Counted from the stretch's first letter, positions 5,390 through 45,509 are shown. The stretch is 64,000 nt of DNA from Rhizobiaceae bacterium (GCA_013214695.1 JABSRX010000001.1:1610-65609); one strand, 5' to 3'. The notes: generated from the sequence alone by a model not told the origin. A program made the numbers and translations.

Positions 5390-5422
5390 CTGTTGCCTCG
5401 CATTCTGCCAGCACGGCGGAAC

Positions 5423-5809
5423 CTATTTCAGCACCACCCGCTTGGCTCCAAGCTGCGTTTCAAAGGACGGCGAGCCCTCATTGACCAGCCACTTGCGCAA
5501 CGTGAAAGTCCGAATACCCTCTGCGTGCATGGGATCATTGCGCGCCAAGTCGCGGGCATCGTCCATCGATTGCGCCCTGTATATAATAAGTCCCGCCCCA
5601 ATCATCTGTTCGCCGGTATCATCGGACAGCGGACCGGCGAGAAAAAGGCGCCCCGCCGCTTCCATCTCCTTTTGATAGGCGAGATGGCGCGGCAGCGTTG
5701 CCTGCAGTGCATCCGGTGCGGCTGCCGGCGTCGATTCTACGACAAACAACTCAAACGCCAGTGACCCGCGCTCGCGGGCAATTTCCTTGTATTCTTCCCA
5801 CAGGGGCAT
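5423..5809 (-). CDS. YciI-family protein
   Basis: About 128 aa with a YciI-like core (RHLAYQKEMEAAGRLFLAGPL...IIYRAQSMDDARDLARNDPMH). I chose the ATG at 5809, which is preceded by GGAG; the longer track ORF starts at 5848. Confidence 0.7.
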   Translation of the reverse strand: MPLWEEYKEIARERGSLAFELFVVESTPAAAPDALQATLPRHLAYQKEMEAAGRLFLAGPLSDDTGEQMIGAGLIIYRAQSMDDARDLARNDPMHAEGIRTFTLRKWLVNEGSPSFETQLGAKRVVLK

Positions 5810-5864
5810 GGCTTCAACTCCGAGGTTCCATTTCGGGCACCATAACAATCAATTCCCCAAATGA

Positions 5865-5878
5865 AAATATCGATATTT
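5865..5878. promoter_or_regulatory. Perfect 14-bp palindrome (AAATATCGATATTT) in a divergent promoter region, next to a sigma70-like TTGACT-N18-TATTTT
   Basis: Read directly at 5865-5878. TTGACT lies at 5881-5886 and tatttt about 18 nt downstream. It sits between the YciI gene (-) and the RutE-like gene (+). Confidence 0.4.
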
Positions 5879-5973
5879 ATTGACTAATATTCAAAAATGT
5901 GGGTATTTTGATCGCAAATGGAATGACCCGTTGCGCCTCTCGGTGGGCCAACAAGACCAAAGCGGAACAGTGA

Positions 5974-6624
5974 ATGTCGGATCTGGAAGCCCTGCGAAAC
6001 CAAGCACAACAGGATATTCGAGAGCTGCGCCAGCAGATCAATCATCTCGATCAACCGGCCATCGACCTCATTTTGCAACGCGCACGGTCCCATTATGCCT
6101 GGCAGGACCGGCCCGTCTCTGAAGATCAGATCAAACGCTTGTACGAAATCACCAAAATGGGCGCCACCAGCATGAACAGCTGTCCGGCCCGTTTCGTGTT
6201 CGTCACCTCCCCGGAAGGCAAGGACCGGCTGGCCAAGGCGCTCAAACCGGCCAATGTTGCCAAATTGATGGGGGCGCCGCTGACCGTCATCGTCGCCTAC
6301 GATCCGGAATTCTGGCGCGAATTGCCAAAGCTTTTCCCGCATGAAGACCGCCGCGGGCATTTCTCCGACAAACCGGCCTTTGCCGAGGAAACCGCGTTCC
6401 GCAACTCAACCCTGCAGGGCGGTTATTTGATGATCGCGGCCCGGGCCATGGGCCTGGATGTCGGTGCCATGTCCGGCTTCAGCAATGCTGCCGTTGATGA
6501 GGAGTTCTTTGCCGACTCCACACTGAAATCAAATTTCCTCTGCAATATCGGCTATGCCGATGAATCCGCGCTGTTCCAGCGGTTGCCACGCTTCGAATTT
6601 GACGAAGCGTGCTCATTTGCGTGA
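5974..6624 (+). CDS. Nitroreductase-family protein, RutE-like (putative malonic semialdehyde reductase)
   Basis: Length and blocks match RutE/YdjA-type nitroreductases: RSHYAWQDRPVSEDQIKRLYEI, SMNSCPARFVFV, GYLMIAARAMGLDVGAMSGF. Confidence 0.75.
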   Translation: MSDLEALRNQAQQDIRELRQQINHLDQPAIDLILQRARSHYAWQDRPVSEDQIKRLYEITKMGATSMNSCPARFVFVTSPEGKDRLAKALKPANVAKLMGAPLTVIVAYDPEFWRELPKLFPHEDRRGHFSDKPAFAEETAFRNSTLQGGYLMIAARAMGLDVGAMSGFSNAAVDEEFFADSTLKSNFLCNIGYADESALFQRLPRFEFDEACSFA

Positions 6625-6646
6625 AGCTGTTGTTGGAGACCGGGAT

Positions 6647-7114
6647 ATGGCACTGAATATTCGACCCAAAACAACGGTAAAGCTGAAGGCAACGGCTGAA
6701 TGTCCGTCGCACTCGTTGTCGGAAGTTGCGGTGCGTGATCTGGTATTTGCCATCGACGAGCCCATCGAACGGGACGGCACCAACAAGGGGCCTACCCCCA
6801 CTGACACCGCCATCGCCGCATTGATTGGCTGCACCAATGTCATCGGACACAAATGCGCCAACAGCCTGGGCATCGATATCGGCCACCTCAATATCTCGGC
6901 CGTCGCTGACTTCGATCGCCGGGGCGTGACCCTGGCCGAAGAAATCGACGTCCCGTTTACCCAGATCGCCCTGAAGATCGAAACCGGGGAAGTTGTCTCT
7001 CAGGAAGATCTGGATCGTCTGGCAGCGGAAGTTACCAAATTCTGCCCATTGTCCAAACTGTTCCGTCAGGCCGGCACAGTGATCAACGAGGAATGGGTCT
7101 CTAAACCAAGCTAG
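6647..7114 (+). CDS. OsmC/Ohr-family protein
   Basis: OsmC-like blocks are present: GPTPTDTAIAALIGCTNVIG and KFCPLSKL (two conserved Cys contexts). The ATG at 6647 follows GGAGAC; the longer track ORF (6554) overlaps the previous gene. Confidence 0.75.
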   Translation: MALNIRPKTTVKLKATAECPSHSLSEVAVRDLVFAIDEPIERDGTNKGPTPTDTAIAALIGCTNVIGHKCANSLGIDIGHLNISAVADFDRRGVTLAEEIDVPFTQIALKIETGEVVSQEDLDRLAAEVTKFCPLSKLFRQAGTVINEEWVSKPS

Positions 7115-7160
7115 TCGGCAGCGTCACTTTGCGCGCATGCCATCAACAGGGAGGAAAACA

Positions 7161-8264
7161 ATGTTGAAACAAGCACTGAAAACGACACGCAGAGGCCTGC
7201 TTGCAGGTGCTCTTGCAGCAGGCACAGCCCTGTCGTTCAACGCCGCACCGGTGCATGCCGCGGAGACGATCAATGTGATCGCCATCGACGGTTATCCGGC
7301 CCGCGCCATGTGGGTGAAGGAGTTTTCCGGCTTCTTCATTCCGCGCGTCAATGAACTGCTGGCAGCCAAGGGCAATTATGAAATCAACTGGCAGGAAGCC
7401 TATGGCGGCACCATCGTCAAGCCGCGTGGCGTGCTCGAAGGTATCAAGCTGGGCCTGGGCGATATCGGCATTGTGACAACCATCTTCCACAACTCGAAAC
7501 TGCCAAGTCAGGGCATTTCCGCGGTGACGCCGTTCATTTCGGCTGACGCCCGCGTGGTGGCCAAGGCGGTTGACGAAATTGCCAAGGAATTCCCGCAGAT
7601 GGCGGCCGAGCTGGACGCTGAAAATCAAGTCTATCTGGCAACTGGCGTGGTGCTCGACACCTATCAGATGTTCTCCAAGACACCGATCAATTCACTGGCC
7701 GACCTGCAGGGCAAGAAAGTTGCCGGCGCCGGTTACAACCTGCGTTACCTGGAAGGCATCGAAGGAGCAGCCGGCGTACGTGGCGGCCTGCCGAACTTCT
7801 ACAACATGCTGCAGACCGGCGTTGTCGACGCGGCTATGCTGTGGCCAGAAGCGGCCAAGACCTTCAAGATCGCCGAAGTTGCTCCTTACATGCTGAAAGC
7901 GGATCTGGGCGCGGTGAACTCCAAAACCGTGACCGTCAACAAGGACGTTTGGGCGAAGCTGCCTGACGAAGTCAAAGGTGTTCTGCAACAGGTTGCGGTT
8001 GAATATCGTGACCATGTGGCAGGCGTTGCCATGGACCGCGCTGCGGCTTCCCTGGATGCCTACAAGGCCGGTGGCGGCACGGTTGTTGAACTGTCTGCCG
8101 AAGCCCGCGCAGCCTGGGCCAAGTCAATGCCGAACATTGCTGCTGACTGGGCCAAGAAGCTGGACGGTGCCGGTGCACCTGGTTCCGATATGCTGAAAGC
8201 CTACACAGCCAAGCTGAAGGCTGCTGGCCAGAACCCAGTCCGCGACTGGGCCAGCGAACTTTAA
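7161..8264 (+). CDS. TRAP transporter substrate-binding protein (DctP family), Tat/Sec signal
   Basis: The signal is TTRRGLLAGALAAGTALSFNAAPVHA. The ATG at 7161 follows GGGAGGA. It is followed by DctQ- and DctM-type genes. Confidence 0.85.
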   Translation: MLKQALKTTRRGLLAGALAAGTALSFNAAPVHAAETINVIAIDGYPARAMWVKEFSGFFIPRVNELLAAKGNYEINWQEAYGGTIVKPRGVLEGIKLGLGDIGIVTTIFHNSKLPSQGISAVTPFISADARVVAKAVDEIAKEFPQMAAELDAENQVYLATGVVLDTYQMFSKTPINSLADLQGKKVAGAGYNLRYLEGIEGAAGVRGGLPNFYNMLQTGVVDAAMLWPEAAKTFKIAEVAPYMLKADLGAVNSKTVTVNKDVWAKLPDEVKGVLQQVAVEYRDHVAGVAMDRAAASLDAYKAGGGTVVELSAEARAAWAKSMPNIAADWAKKLDGAGAPGSDMLKAYTAKLKAAGQNPVRDWASEL

Positions 8265-8303
8265 CGAAACAGGGCGCGGCAAAGCGGCGGAGAGGCATAA
8301 TCG

Positions 8304-8924
8304 ATGAACGAACTCATTCACCGAATTACCGCGCCCGTTGTCTCCGTGGCGATCGTGTCAAACGCGATCGGCACGTTGGTTATCTTCCTTTTGGTCGGCA
8401 TCATGAATGTCGATATCATCGCCCGCGGGGTGTTCCATGCACCGCTGCGCGGCGTTGTTGAAATTGTCATTTTTTCTCTCGTCCTGATCGTCTTCCTGCA
8501 GCTGCCCGACGTAGTGCGCAGCAACCGGTTGACTCGATCGGACGGATTTTTGGTGTTTGCTGAAACACGATTTCCCAATTTTGCCCACTATGCATCGCGG
8601 ACCATCGACCTGGTCGCCGGCATCTTCATGGGCCTGATCGCCTGGACCGTCTATCCGGAATTCGTCGAGTCGATCGAAACCTGCCACTTTATCACGCCAC
8701 CGGAATTCGGTGCGCCGCCGACGGGTGAGTTCTTCACCGATCTGGCCGCCGCCTTTGCGCGCTGCGAATATTTCGGCACGCCTGGCATCTTCACCGCCCC
8801 CTGGTGGCCGGCGAAGCTGGCGATCTTTTTCAGTGTCACCCTGTGCTGCATCATCTTCGTGCTGAAGGCCCTGACGGGCAAACGCAAGCCGGTCCTTGTT
8901 GATGAAAGTGAGAGCCCGGTATGA
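8304..8924 (+). CDS. TRAP transporter small permease (DctQ family)
   Basis: A polytopic hydrophobic protein lying between the DctP and DctM genes. It shares a 4-bp overlap with the large permease (8921-8924). Confidence 0.8.
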   Translation: MNELIHRITAPVVSVAIVSNAIGTLVIFLLVGIMNVDIIARGVFHAPLRGVVEIVIFSLVLIVFLQLPDVVRSNRLTRSDGFLVFAETRFPNFAHYASRTIDLVAGIFMGLIAWTVYPEFVESIETCHFITPPEFGAPPTGEFFTDLAAAFARCEYFGTPGIFTAPWWPAKLAIFFSVTLCCIIFVLKALTGKRKPVLVDESESPV

Positions 8925-10231
8925 GCCCCGTTGAAATTGGCGCCCTGTCGGTCGTCGCCATTGTCGCCATGGTCTATATGGGGGTCTACATCCCCGTCGC
9001 GTTGGGCCTCGTGTCCTTCGTGTCGATCTGGATCATCAGCGGCAAATCCATCCTTGCCTTCAACTTTCTGAAGATCGCCGTCAGCGACGGGGTGACGGAA
9101 TATCCCTTTGCCACCATCCCCTTATTCACCGTCATGGGGCTGCTGGTGTCTCGAGCCGGGCTCGGGACGGACATTTATGCGGTGATGAACCGCGCCTTCC
9201 GGGCACTGACCGGCGGCATCGGCATGGCCACCGTTGGCGCCAATGCGGTGTTTGCCGCGGTGACCGGTTCGTCGATTGCCTCGGCGTCGGTCTTCACCCG
9301 TATCGCCGTGCCGGAAATGCGCAAGCTGAACTACAACAAGCGCTTCGCGGTGGGTGTGGTTGCTGGCTCCTCTGTGCTCGGCATGATCATTCCGCCCAGT
9401 GCCATGCTGATCATCTATTCCTTCGTGTCCGAACAATCCGTCGGCGAAATGTTCCTGGCCGGTATCGTGCCGGGCCTGTTGCTTACGGTTGCCTATATCG
9501 CCTGGATCTACGTCTCCGGCAAAATTCGCCCGGCCTATCTGGGTTCCAATATTGACCATGGCGACGATATTCCGATGTCGCTGTATGAGATCCTCGACAA
9601 GACGGTGCCCACCGTAGCGCTGATCCTGATCGTGCTGGGTGGCATTTACACCGGTTGGCTGACGCCGGTGGAGGCCGGTGCGGCCGGTGCACTGGCGGCC
9701 TTCCTGATCGCCGTACTGCGCCGCAGGATGACCTGGCAGAGCCTATGGGAAACCGCTATTGAAACCGGCCACATCACTGCATCGATCCTGTTCCTGATCA
9801 CCATGGCCTCGCTGTACAGCCGCATGCTCGGCTATGCTGGCCTGCCCAACCAGCTCAATGAAGTCTTGCAGACCTACAATCTCGGCTTCGTCGAAGTGAT
9901 GATCATCTATGTCGTGCTGATGCTGTTCCTGGGCACCCTGCTCGACACTGCCTCGATCATCCTGATCGTCGTACCCCTGTTCATTACGCTGGTGGAAGGC
10001 ATGGGCATGAGCCTCGTATGGTTCGGCATCGTCACCGTGATTGGTGCCGAGATCGGCCTGCTGACGCCGCCGCTGGGGATATCCTGTTTCGTCATCAAAT
10101 CCAGTCTCAATGACCCGGACATCACGCTGAAAGACGTCTTCTTCGGCGCCTTCCCCTTTGCCGTGATCATGCTGCTGGTGCTGATCCTGATCATTGCCTT
10201 CCCGGTCCTGTCGACCGGAATTCTCAACTAA
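8921..10231 (+). CDS. TRAP transporter large permease (DctM family)
   Basis: 436 aa with about 12 TM segments and typical DctM blocks (GGIGMATVGANAVFAAVTGSSIASA, GIYTGWLTPVEAGAAGA). Confidence 0.9.
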   Translation: MSPVEIGALSVVAIVAMVYMGVYIPVALGLVSFVSIWIISGKSILAFNFLKIAVSDGVTEYPFATIPLFTVMGLLVSRAGLGTDIYAVMNRAFRALTGGIGMATVGANAVFAAVTGSSIASASVFTRIAVPEMRKLNYNKRFAVGVVAGSSVLGMIIPPSAMLIIYSFVSEQSVGEMFLAGIVPGLLLTVAYIAWIYVSGKIRPAYLGSNIDHGDDIPMSLYEILDKTVPTVALILIVLGGIYTGWLTPVEAGAAGALAAFLIAVLRRRMTWQSLWETAIETGHITASILFLITMASLYSRMLGYAGLPNQLNEVLQTYNLGFVEVMIIYVVLMLFLGTLLDTASIILIVVPLFITLVEGMGMSLVWFGIVTVIGAEIGLLTPPLGISCFVIKSSLNDPDITLKDVFFGAFPFAVIMLLVLILIIAFPVLSTGILN

Positions 10232-10252
10232 TCCAACCAAGGGAGATGCGCG

Positions 10253-11125
10253 ATGCGCAACGTCACCTCTGAAACGATTACCAAAGCCTTCCTTGACTAT
10301 TGCAGCGACGATACCGATCCGCGGCTGAAATTCGTCCTGGAGAAGCTGGCGACCCATTTGCACGACTTTGTCCGTGAGACCAATCTGACTCACGACGAGT
10401 GGCGCAAGGGGCTGGAGCTGCTGTATGCTGCCGGTGAAATCTCGACGCCGGAACGCAACGAGTTCATCCTGTTCTCCGATGTGCTCGGCCTGTCGTCACT
10501 GGTCGATATGGTGAACTCCCCCGACGATGGCACTCCGTCCAGCGTGTTGGGCCCATTCCACGTGCTTGGCGCGCCGGATGTTCCGGTCGGTGCCGACCTG
10601 AAGGGCGACAACGAAGGCACGACTGTTGTGGTTGGCGGCATGGTGCGCACCCCCGACGGCGCGCCTATCGAAGGCGCTGAGCTGGAAATCTGGCAGACTG
10701 CCGATAACGGTCTTTATTCCAACCAGGACGAGGCCCAGCCGGAGTACAATCTGCGCGCCCACATGACGACGGGGGCGGACGGACGCTACCTGTTCTCCAC
10801 CGTGCGTCCGGCGCCTTATACGGTCCCAGACGACGGGCCGGTAGGTGAATTGCTGAACAATACTGGCCGCCATCCATGGCGTCCGTCCCATCTGCACTTC
10901 ATCGTCACCGCTCCGGGCTACGGCACGCTGGTCACCGAAGTGTTCCCAAGCGATGATCCCTATCTGGATGAAGATCCGGTATTCGGTGTGCGCGAGCAAT
11001 TGGTGATGGAGTATCAGAAGCGCGAGTCGACCGACGGCCTGCCCGATGATTTGGTCGCCAAGGATCAACTCGATACGCCCTATTACATGGTCGACTTCGA
11101 TTTCGTGCTGTCCGACAACCGCTGA
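10253..11125 (+). CDS. Intradiol ring-cleavage dioxygenase (hydroxyquinol/catechol 1,2-dioxygenase family)
   Basis: The N-terminal dioxygenase_N region is NEFILFSDVLGLSSLVD. The catalytic region is GPFHVLGAP, WQTADNGLYSNQD, YLFSTVRPAPYTVPDDGP and RPSHLHFIV. Confidence 0.85.
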   Translation: MRNVTSETITKAFLDYCSDDTDPRLKFVLEKLATHLHDFVRETNLTHDEWRKGLELLYAAGEISTPERNEFILFSDVLGLSSLVDMVNSPDDGTPSSVLGPFHVLGAPDVPVGADLKGDNEGTTVVVGGMVRTPDGAPIEGAELEIWQTADNGLYSNQDEAQPEYNLRAHMTTGADGRYLFSTVRPAPYTVPDDGPVGELLNNTGRHPWRPSHLHFIVTAPGYGTLVTEVFPSDDPYLDEDPVFGVREQLVMEYQKRESTDGLPDDLVAKDQLDTPYYMVDFDFVLSDNR

Positions 11126-11183
11126 GCTTGCTTGATCTATCCGGTCGGACAATAGTGGGTCTTCGCAAACGCGGGGATGCTCC

Positions 11184-11810
11184 ATGGCCAATCATTCACA
11201 AACCAAACGCGCGCTGATCGAAGGGCGTGCCGCGCTGATTGTTATCGACATTCAGGCCAGCACCTTCATCGACGACAGCGCTGTGCGGTCAATCGACAAC
11301 ATGCCAGGCTACAAGGAGCGCATGCTGCAGGCCCGCACTGCCATCGATAAAGCGCGCGCCCGCAATATCCCGGTGATTTTCATCCAGGAAGTGCATCGTC
11401 CTGATCTGATCGACTTTGGACGCGAGCTGGATGGCGACGAGGATGTGCATTGTCTGGAGGATGATCCGCGCACCGACATTGCAGTCAAGGAAATGGACTT
11501 TCGTCCCAACGATTATCTGATCCGCAAGCGCCGCTATTCGGCGTTTTTCGGCACCGACTTTGAGATCCTACTGCGTGGCCTGAAGATCGACACCCTGCTG
11601 CTGGTCGGTGGCCTGACCGATGTTTGTGTTCACTACACATTTGTTGACGGCCACCAGAGCGATTATTATTGCCGCGTCATCGAAGATTGCGTAGCAGGTT
11701 CAAGCCTGGAGGCCCACGAGGCGTCGTTGAAAGCAATGGAGTATTTGCAGACGGGCGCCAGATGCTCGCTGGAGGATGCCTTGCGCGCGATGGACTTGGC
11801 CGCGGTTTAA
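11184..11810 (+). CDS. Isochorismatase-family cysteine hydrolase
   Basis: Motifs are ALIVIDIQ, RKRRYSAFFGTDFEILLRGLKIDTLLLVGGLTDVCVHYT (catalytic Cys context). Confidence 0.8.
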   Translation: MANHSQTKRALIEGRAALIVIDIQASTFIDDSAVRSIDNMPGYKERMLQARTAIDKARARNIPVIFIQEVHRPDLIDFGRELDGDEDVHCLEDDPRTDIAVKEMDFRPNDYLIRKRRYSAFFGTDFEILLRGLKIDTLLLVGGLTDVCVHYTFVDGHQSDYYCRVIEDCVAGSSLEAHEASLKAMEYLQTGARCSLEDALRAMDLAAV

Positions 11811-11817
11811 AACGAAA

Positions 11818-12540
11818 TTAGTCGTTTAACTCATCACTCAGGAACTTGCTGGTGCGGCGATAGTGTTTGACCAGAAGGTCGGCGGCGAGGTCGGCATCGC
11901 GGGCCAGCACTGAGTCACAAATCGCGCTGTGCTCTTCGGCAATGTCACGGGCCGGATAGGCCTTGGTGCCGGACAGCTGGCGGTAGCGAATGGCCTGATC
12001 ATAGAGTTGATCGCAGAATTTCAGCAGCATGGACGAACCGCATTCGCTGATCAGCGTCATGTGAAAGTGCTTGTGCTGGGCTTCCCATTCCTTGTTGGCA
12101 ACGAAATGATCTGAAGCCTCGGAACGGGGCATGCGCGACAGGCGGTAATTGGCCAGCACCACACGCTCTTCCCATTCCGGCGATCCGTTGGCGATGGATT
12201 CCCGCAAGGCGCGCTCTTCCAGCCAGCACCGGGTTTTTAGCAATTCCTCGAATTCCTGCGCGCTGACGTCGGAAACGCGGAAGCCGCGCTGGTCGATGCG
12301 CTCAACGAAGTGATCGGAGGTCAACAGGCTCAGGGCCTCGCGGATGGGCGACGTGCCGACATCGTATTTGCGGCGCAGTTCTTCAATCTTCAATTTGCGT
12401 CCCGGTTCCAGTTCGCCGGAGATGATGTCTTCACGCAGCCGCATATAAGCGCGGCTGGTCATCGATTCCGAACCGACACCATCCGGCGCGTTGGCATCAT
12501 CCAACGCCGGCGCATCACTGATTTTCAATGGATCACCCAT
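11818..12540 (-). CDS. GntR-family transcriptional regulator with FCD ligand domain
   Basis: The N-terminal wHTH is AYMRLREDIISGELEPGRKLKIEELRRKYDVGTSPIREAL. The FCD domain is helical and carries conserved His residues (HKHFHMTLI...). Confidence 0.9.
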   Translation of the reverse strand: MGDPLKISDAPALDDANAPDGVGSESMTSRAYMRLREDIISGELEPGRKLKIEELRRKYDVGTSPIREALSLLTSDHFVERIDQRGFRVSDVSAQEFEELLKTRCWLEERALRESIANGSPEWEERVVLANYRLSRMPRSEASDHFVANKEWEAQHKHFHMTLISECGSSMLLKFCDQLYDQAIRYRQLSGTKAYPARDIAEEHSAICDSVLARDADLAADLLVKHYRRTSKFLSDELND

Positions 12541-12825
12541 AGGAATTGTTCGCCTGTTTTCCGTCCACCCAAATCAAAGCGCCCGTTTTGGCCCCTGATC
12601 CGCGGAGAACACCTCTACCCGGTTTGACCAGCATTTACACTGCGACACGATCCGCTGTCCTTCTTGTATTGCCCGAAAACCCACATTCGCCAACTGCAGT
12701 TTTATATGCTGCGGCAATGTGAACACCGACAACGCTGACACCACGTGTTGCCAACGGACTGGGATCGGCCTTAAAATGCCGATATTTGAGGCCGAGATCG
12801 CCCCTTACGGTGATTTTATAGATAT

Positions 12826-12847
12826 TTTTGCAATTTTGCAAAATATA
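12826..12847. promoter_or_regulatory. AT-rich TTGCAA-N4-TTGCAA repeat (tttttgcaattttgcaaaatat) in the GntR/FAH divergent intergenic region
   Basis: Read directly. It lies 68 nt upstream of the FAH-family ATG (12915). A CCCGATatgATCGGG palindrome lies at 12869-12883. Confidence 0.35.
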
Positions 12848-12914
12848 TCGTTTTTATTTTCGGCCAAACCCGATATGATCGGGCAACGTCAATGACAAAA
12901 GATTGGGAACCGCT

Positions 12915-13781
12915 ATGCGTTTGGTGGCATTTAAGGGAGCCGATGGCTCGCGGGTTGGTGTGGTCAAGGAAGATGGTGTGATCGACCTCACCGCAGTTGA
13001 TTCCAACGCCCCCCGTACGATCGCCGCGGCCATCCGCGAAGATCGCATGGGTGAACTGGGCGAACTCGCCGCCAAGGCCGATGCGGGCAATCGCCTCGAC
13101 TACGACTCGCTGGATTTTGAACTGCCGGTCGCCGACCCGGGCAAGATCCTGTGTCTGGGCCTCAACTATATGGACCACGTGGCGGAAGGCCCGTTCAACA
13201 AGCCCGACTTTCCGGCCATTTTCATGCGCAGCCCGACCTCGCTGGTGCCGCATGGCAAGCCGATCATTCGACCGCTGCAGTCCGAGACCATGGACTATGA
13301 AGCCGAACTGGCCGTGATCATTGGCAAGAAGTCTCGTCACCTGACCCTGACAAATGCGCTGGACGCAATTGCCGGTTACAGTTGCTTCAACGACGGGTCC
13401 GTGCGCGAGTATCAGCGCCATACGATTCAATGGACGATGGGCAAGAACTTCGACCAGACCGGTCCGTTTGGCCCGGTCGTCGTGACGCCGGACGAATTGC
13501 CGGAAGCCGCCCATGGATTGAAAATCGAGTGTCACTTAAACGGCGATACGGTTCAGTCGAGCACGACGGATATGATGATCTTCAAGGTTGCGGAAACCCT
13601 GGTTTACATCACCGAAGGTTTGACGCTTGAGCCCGGCGATGTGGTGATGATGGGAACCCCATCAGGCGTTGGCCATGCCCGCAAGCCGCCCCTATGGATG
13701 CGCGATGGCGACACCGTCGAGATCGAAATCGAAGGCATCGGCGTTCTGCGCAACCCGATCCAGGACGACGTCACGGGCTAG
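12915..13781 (+). CDS. Fumarylacetoacetate hydrolase (FAH)-family hydrolase/isomerase
   Basis: FAH blocks are present: KILCLGLNYMDH, DYEAELAVIIGK, NDGSVREYQ and MMGTPSGVG. The first ATG is at 12915. Confidence 0.85.
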   Translation: MRLVAFKGADGSRVGVVKEDGVIDLTAVDSNAPRTIAAAIREDRMGELGELAAKADAGNRLDYDSLDFELPVADPGKILCLGLNYMDHVAEGPFNKPDFPAIFMRSPTSLVPHGKPIIRPLQSETMDYEAELAVIIGKKSRHLTLTNALDAIAGYSCFNDGSVREYQRHTIQWTMGKNFDQTGPFGPVVVTPDELPEAAHGLKIECHLNGDTVQSSTTDMMIFKVAETLVYITEGLTLEPGDVVMMGTPSGVGHARKPPLWMRDGDTVEIEIEGIGVLRNPIQDDVTG

Positions 13782-38828: not shown

Positions 38829-41456
38829 ATGGAATTTCCAATTCCAGAAAATGAGGACGAACGTCTGGCCAGTTTAAGCCAGTTGAACCTCATTGATGGG
38901 CCTGCCAATCGAGAATTGGACGCAATCGTCAAGCTGGTGGCGACAAGCCTCGATTGCGCCTCGGCGGTGGTATCCTTGCTCGACAAGGATTTCCAATGGT
39001 TCAAGGCCAAGGTCAATCTGGATCCGGATCGCACCGAGCGCAAAGACGCCTTTTGCAACCACACGATCACCGAAAATGATGTTTTTGTCGTTGAAAACGC
39101 CCTTGAGGATCCACGTTTTCGCGACAATCCCCTGGTGACCGATCTGCCAGGGATACGTGCCTATGCTGGCTGCCCCATTTCGATTGATGGTGAGCATGCG
39201 CTGGGCGCGCTTTGCGTGTTCGATTACGAACCGCGCAGTTTTACGGCAGCCGAACTGGAGCGCCTGAAGAGCTACACATTGGTTGTCGAAGGCCTTCTGC
39301 GCAGCCACGAAAGTTCAAGGCGGGTCAGCCGGGCCATTGCGCTGGCAGAAGAAAAGGAAGCGGAATCCAAGCGCAATTTGATGCGCCTGCAAAAGATCAC
39401 GTCCGCATCCGGCATGGGGGGCTGGGAGCTGTATTTTGCCGAGGAGAAACTGCTCTGGTCGTACCAGACAAAGATCATTCACGAGGTGCCACCAGACTAC
39501 GAGCCGTCGCTCGACACCGCGATCAACTTCTACGCCCCTGAAGCCCGCGAGACCATTCAATCGGCCGTCGAGCGCGGCATTGAATTTGGTCAGGGCTGGG
39601 ACCTCGAATTGCCACTAATCACTCATCGCGGCCGCAGCATTTGGGTCCGGGCAGTGGGGGAACCGATCAAGCAGGACGGGGAAGTCGTCGGCGTGATGGG
39701 GACGTTTCAGGACATCACCCAGGAGCGCAAGGACCGTGAACGGTTGCGAAAATCCGAATTGCTGGCACGGGAACGCTCCGAAGAACTGGACGTCACCCTG
39801 GCCAACATGAAACAGGGCGTCAGCGTTTTTGACAGCCAGGGCAAACTGCTGCTGTGGAATGACAAGTATATTCAGATCTTCGAAAAGCAACCGCAGGAGA
39901 TTTTCAAGGGTGCCACTCTTCGAGACCTCGTGTTGGCGGAAAAGGCGCGCGGCGACTTCAAGGGTGACGTTGACGAAATGATCGCTGAACTGAACGCCGA
40001 TCTGGAGACCGGCAAGACGGTGCGGCGTCAGTTTGAACTGAAAAGCGGACGGATCATTTCTTCGGTGCACGCGGCAATGCCAGGCGGCGGCTGGGTTGGT
40101 ACCCATGACGACATCACCCTACAGGAAAAGACCTCACGCCAGATCGCCCATGCGGCCCATCATGATCCGCTGACCGGGCTGGCCAATCGAACCAAGTTCA
40201 ACATCGAAGTGGCGGCCGCTGTTCTGCGATCCAAGCATCACGGTCAAAGAGCCGCCGTCATGCTCATCGATCTCGATGGTTTCAAAATGGTCAATGACGG
40301 GTTTGGCCACAATACCGGTGATGAATTGCTTAAGGGCGTCAGCGAAAGACTGTTGGCGAGCGTTCGGCCCAATGATCTGGTGGCCCGTCTTGGCGGCGAT
40401 GAGTTCGCCGTCGTTCTGGAATGCGCTCCCGACGTGACGACGCCCATCCACGATATCGCCGAACGGGTCCTGTCGGCGCTTGAACTGCCGTTCCTGATTG
40501 GCCGTAAGGAAATCATGATCAGCGCCAGCATCGGTGTCTCGTTTATCGAAGACGACGAAAACCCGGTCGAGACGGCAATGGGCAACGCCGATTGCGCGCT
40601 CTACAAGATCAAGCAGGAGGGCAAGCGCGGCTACCGGGTGTTTGATCTGCAGATCAATATGGAAGTGACCCAAAAGCGGGTGCGCGAACTGGATCTGCGG
40701 GAAGTCACCAAGCTCAAAGCCTTTGAACTTCATTACCAGCCCATCCACGCCATGGGCGACAGCGAAATCTCCGGATTTGAAGCGCTGATCCGCTGGAACA
40801 GTCAGGACCACGAAGTTCAATATCCCGATCAGTTCATTCCGATGGCGGAAGATCTCGGCCTGATCCAGGAGATCGGCGATTGGGTGATCCGGTCCAGCAT
40901 CGCCCAGGCGAAGGACTGGCCCGATCATTTGCGCCTGGCCCTGAACGTGTCACCACGACAGCTGGGGCGCGGACAATTGTTCCAGGTGGTGCGCGACACC
41001 TTGAAGCTGCACAACTTTGACAGCAACAGGCTGGAACTTGAGATCACCGAACATGCAATGATCCAGGACGACGAGGCGACGATCACGGAACTGCGCGATC
41101 TGAAGGAACTGGGTGTGCGTATCGCGCTCGACGATTTCGGCACCGGCTATTCATCGCTCAGCTACCTGCATCGCTTCCCATTCGACAAGCTGAAGATCGA
41201 CCGATCCTTCATCAACGGATTTGAGACCAATGACCGCCGTGCCAACATCATTCGCGCCATCGTTGCCATGGCCGTCAGCCTCGGTATCGAGGTCACCGCG
41301 GAGGGTGTCGAGACCGAGGATCAACTGCTGCTTCTCAAGCTGATGGGCTGCACATTTGCGCAGGGCTATTTCTTCGCAAAACCCATGCCGGCGGACGCCA
41401 TTCCCATTCTATGCGACGATGGGAAAAACGAATCACTTGCAAGGATCAGCGCTTAA
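38829..41456 (+). CDS. GAF-PAS-PAS-GGDEF-EAL signalling protein (c-di-GMP synthase/phosphodiesterase)
   Basis: The N-terminal GAF region is ENEDERLASLSQLNLID. The GGDEF site is intact (RLGGDEFAV). The EAL motifs are intact (FEALIRW, DDFGTGYSSL, KIDRSF, EGVET). Confidence 0.95.
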   Translation: MEFPIPENEDERLASLSQLNLIDGPANRELDAIVKLVATSLDCASAVVSLLDKDFQWFKAKVNLDPDRTERKDAFCNHTITENDVFVVENALEDPRFRDNPLVTDLPGIRAYAGCPISIDGEHALGALCVFDYEPRSFTAAELERLKSYTLVVEGLLRSHESSRRVSRAIALAEEKEAESKRNLMRLQKITSASGMGGWELYFAEEKLLWSYQTKIIHEVPPDYEPSLDTAINFYAPEARETIQSAVERGIEFGQGWDLELPLITHRGRSIWVRAVGEPIKQDGEVVGVMGTFQDITQERKDRERLRKSELLARERSEELDVTLANMKQGVSVFDSQGKLLLWNDKYIQIFEKQPQEIFKGATLRDLVLAEKARGDFKGDVDEMIAELNADLETGKTVRRQFELKSGRIISSVHAAMPGGGWVGTHDDITLQEKTSRQIAHAAHHDPLTGLANRTKFNIEVAAAVLRSKHHGQRAAVMLIDLDGFKMVNDGFGHNTGDELLKGVSERLLASVRPNDLVARLGGDEFAVVLECAPDVTTPIHDIAERVLSALELPFLIGRKEIMISASIGVSFIEDDENPVETAMGNADCALYKIKQEGKRGYRVFDLQINMEVTQKRVRELDLREVTKLKAFELHYQPIHAMGDSEISGFEALIRWNSQDHEVQYPDQFIPMAEDLGLIQEIGDWVIRSSIAQAKDWPDHLRLALNVSPRQLGRGQLFQVVRDTLKLHNFDSNRLELEITEHAMIQDDEATITELRDLKELGVRIALDDFGTGYSSLSYLHRFPFDKLKIDRSFINGFETNDRRANIIRAIVAMAVSLGIEVTAEGVETEDQLLLLKLMGCTFAQGYFFAKPMPADAIPILCDDGKNESLARISA

Positions 41457-41789: not shown

Positions 41790-42059
41790 ATGCACACAAA
41801 GACGAACGAAATTCACGAAGAAAAGATCGTTGAGGCTGTTCGATATGCGATATCGACACGCTTCTGCCTGGACGAACTGTCGCGCCTTCTGGTGATGGAG
41901 GGTGGTGTCGACCTCGACACGTTGGCCCGCATCATTCGGGAAAACCGTGGCGAGGATGCGATGTCCGAGAATGCGCCGGTTGAACCGGAATTCATTTCCG
42001 ATGCCGCCAACGACACCGGTCCGCTTCGTAATTGGTTTGGACTTAAAACGGCGGTCTAA
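41790..42059 (+). CDS. Hypothetical protein, 89 aa
   Basis: The ATG follows GGGGGGA (8 nt). Third-position GC is moderate. I recognise no family. Confidence 0.4.
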   Translation: MHTKTNEIHEEKIVEAVRYAISTRFCLDELSRLLVMEGGVDLDTLARIIRENRGEDAMSENAPVEPEFISDAANDTGPLRNWFGLKTAV

Positions 42060-42092: not shown

Positions 42093-42335
42093 CTAGCCCG
42101 GTTTCCTGTTCTGGGAACCTGAAACCGTGCGATGGGCCGATGCATGCAGATGCTTGTCATCGCCCGTCAGTTGGGCAACCAATGCGTCCACCGCATCCAC
42201 CACTTCGCCCGCCGCCACATATTCGCGTGAATTGATCCTGGCCGACATGCAGACAGACAGGGCTCCCGTTCGGCCTGCCCGCAGGTTGCTCAAAGTCGTG
42301 TGAATGTCGATCGTGCTGCGGCGCGGTTTGGTCAT
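42093..42335 (-). CDS. Hypothetical protein, 80 aa
   Basis: Third-position GC is high, like the neighbouring genes. An AGGAA sequence lies upstream of the ATG. It is divergent from the DUF2793-like operon. I recognise no family. Confidence 0.5.
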   Translation of the reverse strand: MTKPRRSTIDIHTTLSNLRAGRTGALSVCMSARINSREYVAAGEVVDAVDALVAQLTGDDKHLHASAHRTVSGSQNRKPG

Positions 42336-42678
42336 GGGATGATTCCTACTATATCTAGGAACTTATTCCTATGATGGTTACGGGTCAACGCCAATTTCAG
42401 CCGTCCTGAAAATTGTTTGATGCCGTCGTTCAGTGATGATCATAGAACGGGGCTGTGCCTTTAGCGGGTATAAATCAGTTGAACGACAGGTCGACTGACA
42501 TGAAAAAGATCGTTTTGCGCAAACAGGCCAAAGATTGGCAAAAAAAGCTGTCTCGACCACTCATAATTATGCAGGGTTGAGCTCAAATCACCAAAAACGG
42601 CCACCCAACTTATCCTCGCGGTCCACACCTGCCTCATAGTTGCGAACAGTCAATTCGCAGCCCACACGAGGCGGAACC

Positions 42679-43380
42679 ATGTCCGAGAGCACATCCAATC
42701 TGGCCCTGCCCTACATTTTGTCGGCACAGGCGCAAAAGCACGTCACCCACAACGAAGCATTGCGCCATCTTGATGCACTGGTTCACCTGAGCGTCGTTTC
42801 AAAAACTCAGGCAACACCGCCCACCGATCCGCCGGATGGGGATCGCTACATCGTCGCCAGCGGCGCATCCGATGTCTGGGCGGGTAAGGAAGATGCCATT
42901 GCCGCTTTTCAGGACGGAGCATGGGCTTTCCACCAACCCAAGCCGGGCTGGTTGGCCTGGATACAAGATCAGGCAGGGCAGGAAGTCTTTGATGGGGCCG
43001 CCTGGATTGATCCGGGCAAAATCGTGCCGAGCGCTGCCCACACGATCAATCGAACAATTGACGAGCACCTCAGCTTGGCTGGTGAAATAACGGTTGCGGC
43101 AACCGAAATACCGGATCGCGCCATAGTGCTGGGGGTATCGGTGAGGGTGCTTGAGACCATTGAGGGCGCAACCTCGTTTGATGTCGGCATTGAGGGAGAC
43201 ATCGCCAAATTTGGCGGCAGTCTGGGCACGGCCGCTGGCAACACCAATATAGGCGTGATCGGCCCGCACGCCGTCTACGAGCCGACACCCATACAGCTCA
43301 CCGCCAATGGAGGCCCCTTCGCCAGCGGCACAATCGCGCTTGCCCTGCACTTCATCCAGTGCGGGCCGCCGGCGCTTTGA
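42679..43380 (+). CDS. DUF2793-like protein, 233 aa
   Basis: The N-terminal NLALPYILSAQAQKHVTHNEALRHLDAL matches my recollection of the DUF2793 signature. It has no signal peptide or TM segment. Confidence 0.6.
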   Translation: MSESTSNLALPYILSAQAQKHVTHNEALRHLDALVHLSVVSKTQATPPTDPPDGDRYIVASGASDVWAGKEDAIAAFQDGAWAFHQPKPGWLAWIQDQAGQEVFDGAAWIDPGKIVPSAAHTINRTIDEHLSLAGEITVAATEIPDRAIVLGVSVRVLETIEGATSFDVGIEGDIAKFGGSLGTAAGNTNIGVIGPHAVYEPTPIQLTANGGPFASGTIALALHFIQCGPPAL

Positions 43381-43393
43381 TCGGGATCACCGC

Positions 43394-43705
43394 ATGACCG
43401 ACACTATCTGCATTCAGCGCGGACAATGGCTGCCCCTGCGCTTCACCTTTTGGGCCGATCCGGAGAAAACCACCGGCGTGGATCTGCGTGACTCGACCGT
43501 CACCGTCAGCGAATCCAGTCTGGAGGCCCTGAGCCAACTAACACCGACGCCCACCGAACCAGAGAACGGCATCGTCGAACTGACCATCGGGGAAGAGCAC
43601 AGCCTTCAGCTCGACATAGGTCGGGTCAATTGGTTCAAGCTGGAAGTCCAGTTTGCCGACACCAACATCCTCACGCCGAAAATCTGGATCAAGGCCGATG
43701 GCTGA
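43394..43705 (+). CDS. Hypothetical protein, 103 aa (beta-rich)
   Basis: It starts 13 nt after the upstream stop and overlaps the downstream start by 8 nt. I recognise no motif. Confidence 0.55.
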   Translation: MTDTICIQRGQWLPLRFTFWADPEKTTGVDLRDSTVTVSESSLEALSQLTPTPTEPENGIVELTIGEEHSLQLDIGRVNWFKLEVQFADTNILTPKIWIKADG

Positions 43706-45317
43706 GTGCACCGCAGTAACGCTCGAAGTGATCAACCCGCAGGGCACCACGCTCACCGTCGAGGTGCTGGAGCCAAAGGCCGCGCAACTGGAGGTCGACC
43801 TGCAGGCGGGCCCGGCCATTGTCGACGTCTTTGTAGCTTCCCTTAACGAAGGCAGTGGCGGCACGGACACGGAGACCGTTCAAACCATCGCGGCGGGGTC
43901 GACGCTTGGCCTGCAACAGGAGCTGTTGGCGCTGCAAGGACAACCGGCTCTGACGATCCTGGCGGTCGGGGCGACCAATACCGGGCGTGTTCAAGGCGTC
44001 TCTCTCGGCGCCGGCAATGTCATCGAGGTCTATGCCTCGGGCACCGCCTTCACAGCGGGCAGCGTTCTGTACAGGGAATTCATGGAGCTGGGTGAACCGA
44101 TTTGCTTAACCGGTCTGTCAGACGGGGCGATCATCACGTCGACGCAGGGCTTTTACGGGATCAGCGAACAGGCCGACGAGTCTCAGAACGAATACGGCCC
44201 TATGCCCCTGTTCTCCTACGGCCTGTCCTTCGACTTTTCCTTCCTCTACGGCTTTCGCGACTTTGATCAGGACGATGGCTTGATCCATGTGATCAACGGG
44301 CCGTTGGACAATCGCATCACTCTCACCCTGGGCGACGGCACGGTGGTGCTCGAGCAACAGGAGATTCCGCTCGCCCCCTGGGAGAAAACCGTACTGAGCG
44401 GCAATGGTGCTCAGGAATACATCCTGCGCGGCACAAACCGCATGATGGCCGGGGTGCAGGCCGGGATGATTGACGGCAGTTTCAAGGACAATCGCCTGAT
44501 CATGCCGCTGACCCATGACGGCATCACCTGGCCGCGCAAAGGTTTCCTGTCAGCGCCGTTCGATGACACGCTGGTCGACTATTATGTGCGCGACGGGATC
44601 AGCGGGTCACTCAATGACGGCGCCGGTGTATCACCTGGATCACCAGTCGACATCGCGTTGGCGCCACCGATTGGCACCGGCGCCAACGACATTCGCTATC
44701 GGCCCAATGGCGCCACGCGGTTTCGCGCCAAGGGGTTGATTTCCGCCTTTTCCGGCGCCGACGGGTTCGGCTCCGAGGCGACCCCGTTGATGCCCGTCAC
44801 CGCCATGGCGCAGGTGACCGCGCAGCCCTTCATCATAAGCGATGCCAATAATGGCGGCTATTCCGGAATCGCCCTGGCGTCCTGCTGCGAATGCGAAGCC
44901 AAGGTCTATGAGTATGACGCGCAGGGCGAAGGACTGGTTCTCAAATATGACGTCGCCCTCACCCGCCAATCAGTGAGCCTCGACTCCCCGGAAAAACAGT
45001 ACCATCCGGCCGCTGCCGCCATTTCCAACGAAACGGCCCATGGCGCCATCGAACTGCAAGGCGCGTTAAAGCCCGGCGTCATTGTTTCCACCGCCCCCAT
45101 TATGGTGATCGCCCAAAACGGCGATCCGGATCTGCAACCAGAAATCCGCAGTCAAAACGGCACGACGACGGCGTCCATTAAAACCAGCGGTGACGAAACG
45201 CTGATGCTGGGATGGATACCCGATCAGCTGAGAGCGCAGGTCACAACCGATGCAAACGGGTTTCTGCGGCGGCGCCAATTGGATGGTGCCGGGCTGGAAA
45301 GCTGGCCGCTGGCATAA
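43698..45317 (+). CDS. Hypothetical protein, 539 aa, G/T/S/V-rich, no recognisable domain
   Basis: It is a long ORF with host-like codon bias. The ATG at 43698 overlaps the upstream gene. It has no signal peptide, TM segment, P-loop or catalytic box. Confidence 0.7.
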   Translation: MAECTAVTLEVINPQGTTLTVEVLEPKAAQLEVDLQAGPAIVDVFVASLNEGSGGTDTETVQTIAAGSTLGLQQELLALQGQPALTILAVGATNTGRVQGVSLGAGNVIEVYASGTAFTAGSVLYREFMELGEPICLTGLSDGAIITSTQGFYGISEQADESQNEYGPMPLFSYGLSFDFSFLYGFRDFDQDDGLIHVINGPLDNRITLTLGDGTVVLEQQEIPLAPWEKTVLSGNGAQEYILRGTNRMMAGVQAGMIDGSFKDNRLIMPLTHDGITWPRKGFLSAPFDDTLVDYYVRDGISGSLNDGAGVSPGSPVDIALAPPIGTGANDIRYRPNGATRFRAKGLISAFSGADGFGSEATPLMPVTAMAQVTAQPFIISDANNGGYSGIALASCCECEAKVYEYDAQGEGLVLKYDVALTRQSVSLDSPEKQYHPAAAAISNETAHGAIELQGALKPGVIVSTAPIMVIAQNGDPDLQPEIRSQNGTTTASIKTSGDETLMLGWIPDQLRAQVTTDANGFLRRRQLDGAGLESWPLA

Positions 45318-45350
45318 AAAAACAGGAACTGACGCGCAATTGTCAGTTCC
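45316..45350 (-). terminator. Rho-independent terminator for the minus-strand small ORF; the hairpin also closes the plus-strand operon
   Basis: A perfect 9-bp stem ggaactgac/gtcagttcc (45325-45333 and 45342-45350). On the minus strand it is followed by TGTTTTTTTAT. Confidence 0.7.
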
Positions 45351-45377
45351 CGCTGATTGTCTTGGAGGGTATCAGGT

Positions 45378-45509
45378 TTAGTGGAAGTGACCGTAGAGTT
45401 TCTTTTGGGTCTCGACTTCCTGAAATCTTGGGCCGTCCTTCTGATCGGCGGCGACGGCAATGGCGAGGCAGCACAAAGTTGCCGCGGTGGTGATGAAGAT
45501 CAAGGTCAT
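45378..45509 (-). CDS. Unannotated small hydrophobic protein, 43 aa (MTLIFITTAATLCCLAIAVAADQKDGPRFQEVETQKKLYGHFH)
   Basis: A GGGAG sequence lies 6 nt upstream of the ATG. It has an N-terminal TM or signal-like helix. A canonical terminator lies 28 nt after the stop. Confidence 0.5.
   Translation of the reverse strand: MTLIFITTAATLCCLAIAVAADQKDGPRFQEVETQKKLYGHFH

Follow-up and report, generated by a model that had tools for sequence, protein, structure and literature searches.

We analysed a window of 64 kb, taken from a 98-kb contig in the metagenome-assembled genome (MAG) of a marine Rhizobiaceae bacterium, and describe here a locus of three open reading frames (ORFs) that follow one another on its plus strand. 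ORF1 (42679-43380, 233 amino acids, aa), ORF2 (43394-43705, 103 aa) and ORF3 (43698-45317, 539 aa) each run from an ATG to a stop codon. We think it probable that this locus is a domesticated, phage-derived adsorption module, in which a baseplate fibre of the type carried by gene transfer agents (GTAs) is combined with a dispensable side-fibre cassette, ORF2-ORF3. The new elements are the cassette, its separability from ORF1, and an unannotated but widely spread tip domain in ORF3; ORF1 is already explained and alone would be routine. More tentatively, the cassette may belong to an unrecognised class of accessory fibres, long kept beside a GTA fibre gene, whose tip has an unusually conserved sequence and a fold without a PDB counterpart, and occurs in marine phages of several morphotypes, in prophages, in FirrV-1-C4, a protein of an algal virus, and in a giant-virus MAG. 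The host range of a GTA depends on remote adsorption genes, and almost all known examples of these come from Rhodobacter. The locus suggests how a lineage outside the Rhodobacterales may have extended a GTA-type fibre gene with a cassette derived from phages.

A preliminary description of the locus had given the same three frames, and its coordinates were exact, including the 13-nt gap between ORF1 and ORF2 (43381-43393) and the 8-nt overlap of the ORF2 stop with the ORF3 ATG (ATGGCTGA, 43698-43705). The three are real genes and not chance ORFs, because of the DUF2793 score of ORF1, the numbers of homologues and the ratios of nonsynonymous to synonymous substitution (dN/dS) in orthologues, all of which are given below.

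The DUF2793 fibre gene and its genomic site

ORF1 passed the Pfam model DUF2793 (PF10983) with 112.4 bits against a cut-off of 27 (E 9.5e-33, residues 24-109). Residues 5-231 aligned with residues 3-229 of chain S of the PDB entry 8GTC (E 1.4e-39), and ORF1 is colinear over its full length with this structurally defined protein, which is the tail fibre of the roseophage vB_DshS-R4C (vBDshSR4C_017; PMC10276861). The R4C fibre begins with a coiled-coil rod (residues 1-35) that binds the megatron protein's fibre-binding domain, followed by a knob (36-117) and a foot with a lectin-like beta-barrel (118-230) (PMC10276861). By homology to R4C gp17, ORF1 would be composed of a rod (about residues 1-37, 42679-42789), a knob (residues 38-119, 42790-43035) and a lectin-like foot (residues 120-233, 43036-43377), all on the plus strand. 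DUF2793 is also a domain of Rcc00171, the fibre of the Rhodobacter capsulatus gene transfer agent (RcGTA), which is encoded at a remote locus and is needed for gene transfer (PMC5026251; PMC7296036), and the R4C and RcGTA fibres share 30% identity (PMC10276861). Of 293 alphaproteobacteria that bear a GTA, 225 have a DUF2793 gene, and this gene co-evolves with the GTA genes (PMC10883770). The ORF1 family has more than 2,500 homologues, mostly of about 233 aa. These results firmly point to ORF1 as a tail fibre, presumably trimeric, of the RcGTA/R4C (Rcc00171) type. The preliminary description had recognised the DUF2793 family and its association with phage and GTA fibres, which the score and the solved homologue bear out; it had also treated ORF1 as part of an orphan unit with no assignable function, which can no longer be maintained because a homologue with a solved structure exists.

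Full-length homologues of ORF1 in the phages R5C, R4C and RDJL-phi1/2 lie directly 3' of genes resembling g12-g15 of GTAs. On one Xanthobacter-type contig (L089; we designate contigs and loci by L numbers), a homologue of 233 aa with 51% identity lies about 2.2 kb 3' of the GTA genes g12 (DUF2460), g13 (BR0599), g14 and g15 (GTA_TIM/Rcc01698_C), and a DUF4153 gene intervenes before the fibre gene. The association of the DUF2793 gene with a g12-g15 module was therefore seen in L089, R5C and R4C, but not in the window. The link of our three genes to GTAs is indirect, its one direct support being the L089 homologue, as judged from its sequence and position.

In the L089 locus (8055-13518) g15 is succeeded by the DUF4153 membrane protein and then by the DUF2793 fibre of 233 aa. 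Proteins of 107 aa, 53 aa (with DDDGQL repeats) and 402 aa come next, the last with motifs like those of SGNH hydrolases (SDSYGQG, GGINDS), and after them a GH108 muramidase. We considered the genes 3' of this DUF2793 gene as counterparts of ORF2 and ORF3 and ruled them out, as they bear no likeness to either. The fibre loci of Hyphomicrobiales GTAs seem to collect differing accessory genes.

The trio of ORF1, ORF2 and ORF3 was found in four lineages, namely the window and three other MAG species, all Rhizobiaceae (L020, identical with L002; L021; and L022, identical with L009). In the window, L020 and L021 the trio is flanked upstream by a gene for a GGDEF/EAL protein and two small ORFs, and downstream by genes for an inositol-phosphatase, a PhyH protein and a PfkB protein. 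The trio in L022 has the upstream flank alone in common with these. The synteny in relatives on which the preliminary description had made its reading depend was thus found, in L022 for the upstream flank only. A further Rhizobiaceae MAG (L090/L091) has the identical neighbourhood, with an ORF1 that is 57% identical but without ORF2 and ORF3. In L090 the orthologue of a hairpin found 3' of ORF3 in the window (GGAACCGAC / GTCGGTTCC) comes about 95 nt after the stop of the DUF2793 gene, and beyond it lies a gene for a 43-aa protein, as in the window. The view that the trio forms one unit therefore holds insofar as the three genes have been kept together in four lineages, but the unit is not indivisible, since ORF1 occurs alone at the same site in L090/L091.

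Identity matrices of the flanking proteins and of ORF1 paired the window with L020, and L021 with L090, and placed L022 outside both pairs. As L021, which bears the trio, has L090 as its sister, losing the cassette once is the most parsimonious course, and in the simplest history ORF2-ORF3 was present ancestrally and disappeared a single time. ORF1 is thus the stable resident of the site, and ORF2-ORF3 a long-kept but dispensable and separable add-on, for which one relative without the cassette provides a natural "knock-out" for comparison. Two IS66-family transposase genes are found a few kb 5' of the fibre locus in L090 (1-1186 and 4461-5900), and the boundaries of the deletion look clean.

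The order of divergence of the trio matches that of the flanking genes, with dN two to three times that of the flanks. Across the orthologues in the three other MAG species dN/dS was about 0.13-0.25, a rough value as dS is saturated. The locus was found at the same site in four to five MAG species, which, together with these values, indicates vertical inheritance under purifying selection. It could still be argued that a prophage has decayed here and left its tail-fibre module as an inert remnant, since phage relatives are known for each of the three genes and no further phage genes lie nearby. We regard this as highly improbable: the frames are intact in at least four species-level lineages at one chromosomal site, the dN/dS ratios are low, divergence is congruent with that of the host flanks, base composition is like that of the host, and translational coupling is preserved. 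The G+C content of the three ORFs is host-like (0.58-0.615, compared with 0.56-0.63 in the flanks), and Pfam annotation over 10 kb on either side, which was not exhaustive, gave cellular genes only, in agreement with the earlier statement that the locus is not a recent prophage. Capsid, portal, terminase, integrase and tRNA genes had likewise been said to be missing. We found no tRNA gene in the window, and a tblastn search of it with a small, not exhaustive set of GTA g12-g15, terminase, portal, capsid and integrase proteins gave no match.

Predicted folds and architecture of ORF2 and ORF3

The AlphaFold2 model of ORF3 (predicted local distance difference test score, pLDDT, 87; predicted template-modelling score, pTM, 0.82) has an N-terminus of low confidence, a helical neck (residues 58-78) and a confident all-beta body (residues 80-539). 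We distinguish three parts, all on the plus strand: an N-terminal beta-strand anchor that is specific to the clade and is modelled as four strands with pLDDT 52-67 (residues 1-46, 43698-43835); a Gly-rich linker with the conserved helical neck TVQTIAAGSTLGLQQELLA (residues 47-79, 43836-43934); and an all-beta C-terminal tip with pLDDT mostly above 90 (residues 80-539, 43935-45317 including the stop codon). The N-terminal segment is conserved only in orthologues from trio loci, namely L020 and L022 (40% identity over residues 1-45). The orthologues in L021 and L022 keep the 45-residue N-terminus of the window type and the tip, and have about 100-300 aa of collagen-like repeats inserted between the two. 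A Pfam Collagen hit was obtained on one orthologue (P0006), whereas ORF3 of the window has the Gly-rich linker and no such hit. A trimer is implied for ORF3 because the orthologues replace the neck by a long collagen stalk. In L021 (ORF3 orthologue, 5101-8049) the stalk is about 300 aa long, and collagen repeats alternate in it with two CBM5/12-like motifs, YDVGNTYSRLDLV and YDNTATYLVDDVV. The L021 frame extends about 600 nt past the end of the ORF3-like match (7437) and is followed by an additional 157-aa ORF (8054-8527) that is absent from the window.

Elsewhere in the ORF3 family the N-termini vary. They include collagen, Mtd_N and phage-tail repeats (PTR), through which family members match many tail-fibre PHROGs; other copies have a fibre motif of the KISELP/LTDLP type, or merely 10-25 residues ahead of the neck. 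The build of the family is recognisably that of a standard modular fibre, which would be trimeric. Homologues of ORF3 form more than 415 clusters with about 50-57% identity over about 90% of the length, and the tip has the same 50-57% identity to most of the phage copies. In an alignment of 62 sequences, 80 columns of the tip are conserved to at least 97%, many of them polar. A proposal of four internal repeats ending in (D/E)-x-x-h-h-P was dropped, as hhalign comparison of sub-alignments and self-comparison gave probabilities of at most 2%.

ORF3 did not match any model in Pfam (E≤1), PHROGs, NCBIfam or PADLOC, and no match was obtained by tblastn in 50,697 phage genomes on deposit and 72,556 plasmids, or by a profile search of the PDB sequences. 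A Foldseek search of the PDB with the model gave no convincing match either, the best having E 9e-4 at a template-modelling (TM) score of 0.09. Against BFVD there was one clear match, FirrV-1-C4 (Q6XLX4; E 2.9e-30, TM 0.67, 20% identity), a protein of a phaeovirus of brown algae. The predicted structures thus point to one structural domain, the tip fold of ORF3, that would be common to phages and eukaryotic giant viruses. A paper on alginate lyase that mentions FirrV-1, considered as a clue to the function of ORF3, concerns FirrV-1-B30 and not C4, and so offers none. The tip defines a large family that is known only from uncultivated sequences, that has a confident predicted fold with no solved counterpart, and that links phages with algal giant viruses, which makes it a target for structural and glycan-binding work.

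The AlphaFold2 model of ORF2 (pLDDT 94.7) is a single beta-sandwich of the immunoglobulin (Ig) type. The best Foldseek matches in the PDB were chains of the tail tips of DT57C and T5 (8hqz_Q, 8hqz_T and 7qg9_L; E 1.3e-4 to 1.8e-4, TM 0.58-0.62), and small chains of the Bas63 connector and the Sf14 neck also matched (E 5e-4 to 8.5e-3, TM about 0.65); TM over the top phage-chain matches ranged from 0.58 to 0.67. In T5 an Ig-like collar protein, p132, is a true structural protein, to which about 50 N-terminal residues of pb1 tether the dispensable side fibres (bioRxiv 10.1101/2022.09.20.507954). From the length of the chain, 7qg9_L would be p132. By sequence, ORF2 had no match in the PDB or among the deposited phages. 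It has 13 close homologues, and a profile search of 1.8 billion representatives found about 50 distant ones, mostly stand-alone proteins of about 100 aa; some relatives are tandem copies within proteins of 477 and 4212 aa. R5C gp069 and the tail terminator R4C_018 were considered as relatives of ORF2 and were ruled out, having no meaningful similarity to it.

ORF2-like genes adjoin fibre genes in three other contigs. In L014 the order is a DUF2793 protein (E 3.3e-12), the ORF2-like protein, a 1117-aa protein with CBM5/12 and Laminin_G_3 domains, a DUF4376 protein and a muramidase, and the ORF2-like gene overlaps that of the 1117-aa protein by 4 nt. In the phage contigs L046 (E 3e-17) and L027 (E 2e-11) the ORF2-like gene lies beside an ORF3-like gene. 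The overlap of the ORF2-like gene with its successor in L016 is 8 nt, as in the window. These contexts agree with a role of ORF2-like proteins in fibre modules, and by analogy with T5 we propose that ORF2 is an adaptor that would anchor a fibre.

Phage contexts of the ORF3 family and the place of the cassette

The ORF3 family is encoded in 10 of 185,579 species-representative genomes, all ten of them MAGs, and in at least 59 viral contigs of IMG/VR, including one giant-virus MAG whose copy (L088, 267-1556) is 27% identical. The ORF3-like gene lies within phage structural modules, for instance in L001, L007, L025, L027 and L046. The expectation of the preliminary description that ORF2 and ORF3 would look like accessory proteins of virions and unlike ordinary enzymes is supported by the Ig-like fold of ORF2, the fibre-type architecture of the ORF3 family and these structural neighbourhoods. 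The positions of the genes differ. In L025 the ORF3-like gene lies between a tail-fibre-like gene and an endolysin gene, and in L027 it comes after an ORF2-like gene and a tail-fibre-like gene; in L024 it lies between replication genes and the terminase gene. In at least 12 contigs of the podovirus type it directly follows the gene for a portal of about 700 aa, in some together with SU10-type head genes. A T7-like contig has it between the portal and scaffold genes, and the order in L046 is ORF3-like, ORF2-like, portal, scaffold, major head protein.

Two proteins recur beside ORF3-like genes in phages and are absent from the window. A protein of about 115 aa overlaps or abuts the stop of the ORF3-like gene in L010, L031, L040, L044 and L047; it gives no ORF2-like (Ig) signal and is possibly a fibre chaperone. 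A protein of about 180 aa is encoded directly 5' of the ORF3-like gene in L010, L027, L030, L037, L042, L047 and L073, and in L027 it matches a tail-fibre PHROG. We compared the recurrent neighbours in phages (about 115 aa and 166-533 aa downstream, about 180 aa upstream) with ORF2, and none is ORF2-like. A bacterial contig of 1.68 Mb (L005, 9859-11620) has an isolated ORF3-like gene with dus on one side and cobW on the other, and no phage gene is nearer to it than 10 kb. This copy retains the phage-fibre N-terminal motif KISELP. The 46-aa ORF ahead of it starts with MPSLGLGL, reminiscent of IALGLGLGL, the N-terminal sequence through which the head fibre of RcGTA binds to its base.

The positions beside the portal suggest another place for the cassette on a particle. 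ORF2-ORF3 might form a spike on the head or neck, functionally analogous to the RcGTA head spike with its base Rcc01079 and fibre Rcc01080, and the locus would then unite a tail fibre and a capsid or neck adhesin of one particle. The podovirus contigs, the T7-like contig and the order in L046 favour such a spike, as do the matches of ORF2 to small chains of the Bas63 connector and the Sf14 neck, and RcGTA, too, encodes its head spike in two coupled genes at a remote locus (PMC5026251; PMC7296036). However, the copies in L025 and L027 lie in the tail-fibre/lysis region, and in the window the pair is joined to a tail-fibre operon. No RcGTA head-spike base appeared among the top 50 PDB matches of ORF2, which is Ig-like and not a jelly-roll base, and the N-terminus of ORF3, MAECTAVTLEV, has neither the (I/L)-G repeat nor the LGLGL motif that is the binding feature of Rcc01080. 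The gene order of SU10, tried as an arbiter of whether the position after the portal belongs to the head or the tail, was not decisive. We consider a head or neck spike unlikely.

We also asked how the conservation of the ORF3 tip bears on its activity. The tip could be enzymatic, a fibre-borne polysaccharide depolymerase or esterase that clears capsule or biofilm matrix as the RcGTA tailspike TspA does, and not a passive binder. In keeping with an enzyme are the identity of 50-57% across phage types, the roughly 30 polar residues (D, E, R, H, Q, S, Y) that hardly vary over the 62 sequences, and the occurrence of the family in an algal giant virus and in a giant-virus MAG, viruses of hosts with polysaccharide walls. 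TspA itself is a precedent, and in L089 the DUF2793 gene is followed by a protein with SGNH-like motifs. On the other side, ORF3 matched no enzyme family in Pfam or NCBIfam and no convincing enzyme fold in the PDB (beta-galactosidases matched at TM 0.09), and we recognised no catalytic motif in it. Nor is the tip a beta-helix: a right-handed beta-helix with a PF12218-like cap, as in a TspA-like tailspike, received no Pfam match at E≤1, and no tailspike or beta-helix was among the PDB fold matches. An enzymatic tip is thus possible, though on balance doubtful; it would be compatible with the adsorption module that we favour and with the high conservation.

A role independent of any particle would be a different matter. 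The proteins might have been exapted as a released lectin or adhesin, or as a decoy that blocks phage or GTA receptors. The lone ORF3-like gene amid housekeeping genes in L005 is in line with this, and purified Rcc00171 added to cells blocks the uptake of RcGTA (PMC5026251). But ORF1-3 have no transmembrane or signal-like segments (maximal Kyte-Doolittle mean over 19 residues, 1.38), as the preliminary description had stated for ORF2 and ORF3, and no PADLOC defence model matched ORF1-3 or the two small ORFs upstream. Moreover, the rod of ORF1 that would dock on the megatron is conserved, and the L005 copy of ORF3 has kept its phage-fibre motif. We judge such an exaptation to be quite improbable.

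We therefore return to the adsorption module with a GTA-type fibre and a side-fibre cassette, which could work in two layers. In the first, a trimer of ORF1 would, by homology, dock through its rod on the megatron of an RcGTA-like baseplate and present, after the knob, a lectin-like foot that binds a surface sugar. In the second, ORF2-ORF3 would be a side-fibre cassette of marine-phage origin, whose two genes are translationally coupled to each other and presumably co-transcribed with ORF1. ORF2 would act as an adaptor or collar that holds the 45-residue N-terminus of a trimeric ORF3, or this N-terminus would be held by the particle, and the neck would carry a tip of 460 residues that recognises, and possibly cleaves, a glycan of the cell surface. 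The carrier particle would be a GTA encoded elsewhere in the genome, to which the cassette would add a second, dispensable specificity. The roles of ORF2 as an adaptor and of ORF3 as a second activity are suggested by the folds, the family architecture, the gene coupling and the analogy to p132/pb1 of T5. The analysis shows the homology and layout of ORF1, the folds of ORF2 and ORF3, the fibre-like build and phage settings of the ORF3 family, retention by descent under purifying selection and the separability of the cassette; the interaction of ORF2 with ORF3, the trimerisation of ORF3, its ligand and the GTA as carrier are what we infer. A GTA is the most likely carrier because no phage genes lie nearby, inheritance is vertical, the L089 homologue lies near GTA genes and the remote loci of RcGTA for its fibre, head spike and TspA provide a precedent, but this is the weakest step of the model.

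Several observations weigh against this model. In the podoviruses the gene beside the portal occupies a head/neck and not a tail position, and a DUF2793 gene was found at none of the phage loci with ORF3. With about 55% identity between phages of unrelated types, the tip is unusually conserved for a domain that binds receptors, which would fit an enzyme or a role other than adsorption. An ORF2-like partner is present at few of the roughly 65 ORF3-like loci. Generic Ig domains, such as those of antibodies, score almost as well with ORF2 as the phage chains do (TM about 0.6), and because they follow so closely the resemblance of ORF2 is one of fold only. ORF1 needs no partner, because its foot domain is complete, and it is by analogy that ORF2 and ORF3 would sit on the same particle. 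Finally, no GTA head-tail cluster was seen within the 64-kb window, which is the part that was checked, and a full CtrA box (TTAA-N7-TTAA) occurs nowhere in it.

Flanking features and comparison with known systems

The intergenic region 5' of ORF1 (42336-42678, plus strand) is presumed to contain the promoter. Conserved blocks, ATGCAGGGTTG and TTATCC.CGC among them, appeared in its alignment with L020; nothing on its plus strand scored as a sigma-70-like site, and it matched no Rfam family. The sequence GAGG is found 9 nt 5' of the ORF1 ATG. At the other end, the preliminary description had the three genes terminate at a perfect 9-bp hairpin. The hairpin exists (arms GGAACTGAC / GTCAGTTCC, within 45321-45354), but its U-tract lies on the minus strand. 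Read on that strand it has a 13-bp stem followed by U7 (z = -5.0) and lies 24 nt past the stop of a convergent 43-aa ORF, whereas on the plus strand it has a 10-bp stem and no U-tract (z = -2.5). As an intrinsic terminator it is thus strong for the minus strand but weak for the plus strand and, because of the U-tract, serves mainly the 43-aa gene and is at best shared by the convergent genes. The 43-aa ORF (45378-45509, minus strand; MTLIFITTAATLCCLAIAVAADQKDGPRFQEVETQKKLYGHFH), which has a hydrophobic N-terminus, has the sole strong intrinsic terminator of the region; its DNA is 75% identical in L090, and it is called as a gene in L002, L003, L090 and L091.

Just 5' of ORF1 lie two convergent small ORFs, one of 89 aa (41790-42059, plus strand) and one of 80 aa (42093-42335, minus strand). 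They are kept in all five related MAG loci with 52-82% identity and dN/dS of 0.09-0.25, and no Pfam entry is on record for them. Both are present in L022 although the GGDEF/EAL gene is missing there. That gene, which encodes a GAF-PAS-GGDEF-EAL protein of 875 aa in the window (38829-41456, plus strand), is conserved as the neighbour upstream of the fibre gene in four out of five relatives. Cyclic di-GMP signalling influences the production of RcGTA in Rhodobacter.

Compared with known fibres, ORF1 is closest to that of R4C, with which it is colinear over the whole length (233 and 230 aa) with an equal rod-knob-foot layout and DUF2793, at about 41% identity (tblastn). Like rcc00171, the ORF1 gene lies away from any head-tail cluster in the host chromosome, in our case as judged within the 64-kb window; the RcGTA fibre is longer (371 aa) and its knob is larger than that of ORF1. 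Neither the R4C nor the RcGTA fibre gene has ORF2- or ORF3-like genes after it, the next gene in R4C being that of the tail terminator. The ORF3 family resembles the phage fibres with collagen stalks (Collagen, Mtd_N or PTR N-termini and exchangeable tips) in combining a virion-specific N-terminus, often a collagen stalk, a neck and a tip. It differs from them in that the tip has no match among Pfam, PHROG, NCBIfam or PDB folds, and the copy in the window is without collagen repeats.

The arrangement proposed for the cassette is most like that of p132 and pb1 in T5. The fold matches of ORF2 include chains of 137-140 residues from the tail tips of T5 and DT57C, which by their length would be p132, and the 45-residue anchor of ORF3 and the dispensable cassette parallel the N-terminus of about 50 residues of pb1 and the dispensable side fibre. 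Unlike a true homologue of p132, or of the N-domain of BppU of TP901-1, ORF2 has no sequence similarity to these proteins and resembles them at the level of an Ig fold only (TM about 0.6). A partner like p140 is absent from the ORF2 locus, and it is by analogy that ORF2 would anchor ORF3.

The last comparison is with TspA (rcc02623), a detachable tailspike of RcGTA that is encoded by a further remote accessory gene and is reported to be absent outside the Rhodobacterales (bioRxiv 10.64898/2026.07.19.739414), so that analogues could exist elsewhere. TspA is a glycanase that folds as a beta-helix and has a CBM-like N-domain, whereas ORF3 has no beta-helix and no Pfam or fold match, and the tspA gene is monocistronic and does not lie beside the fibre gene. 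As proposed here, the cassette would share with TspA the features of an extra protein for adsorption or matrix processing by a GTA, encoded at a remote locus, non-essential and confined to one alphaproteobacterial order. If the tip of ORF3 is indeed a new module that recognises or cleaves a glycan polymer widespread on marine surfaces, the cassette would be a counterpart of TspA outside the Rhodobacterales, with a new receptor-binding fold.

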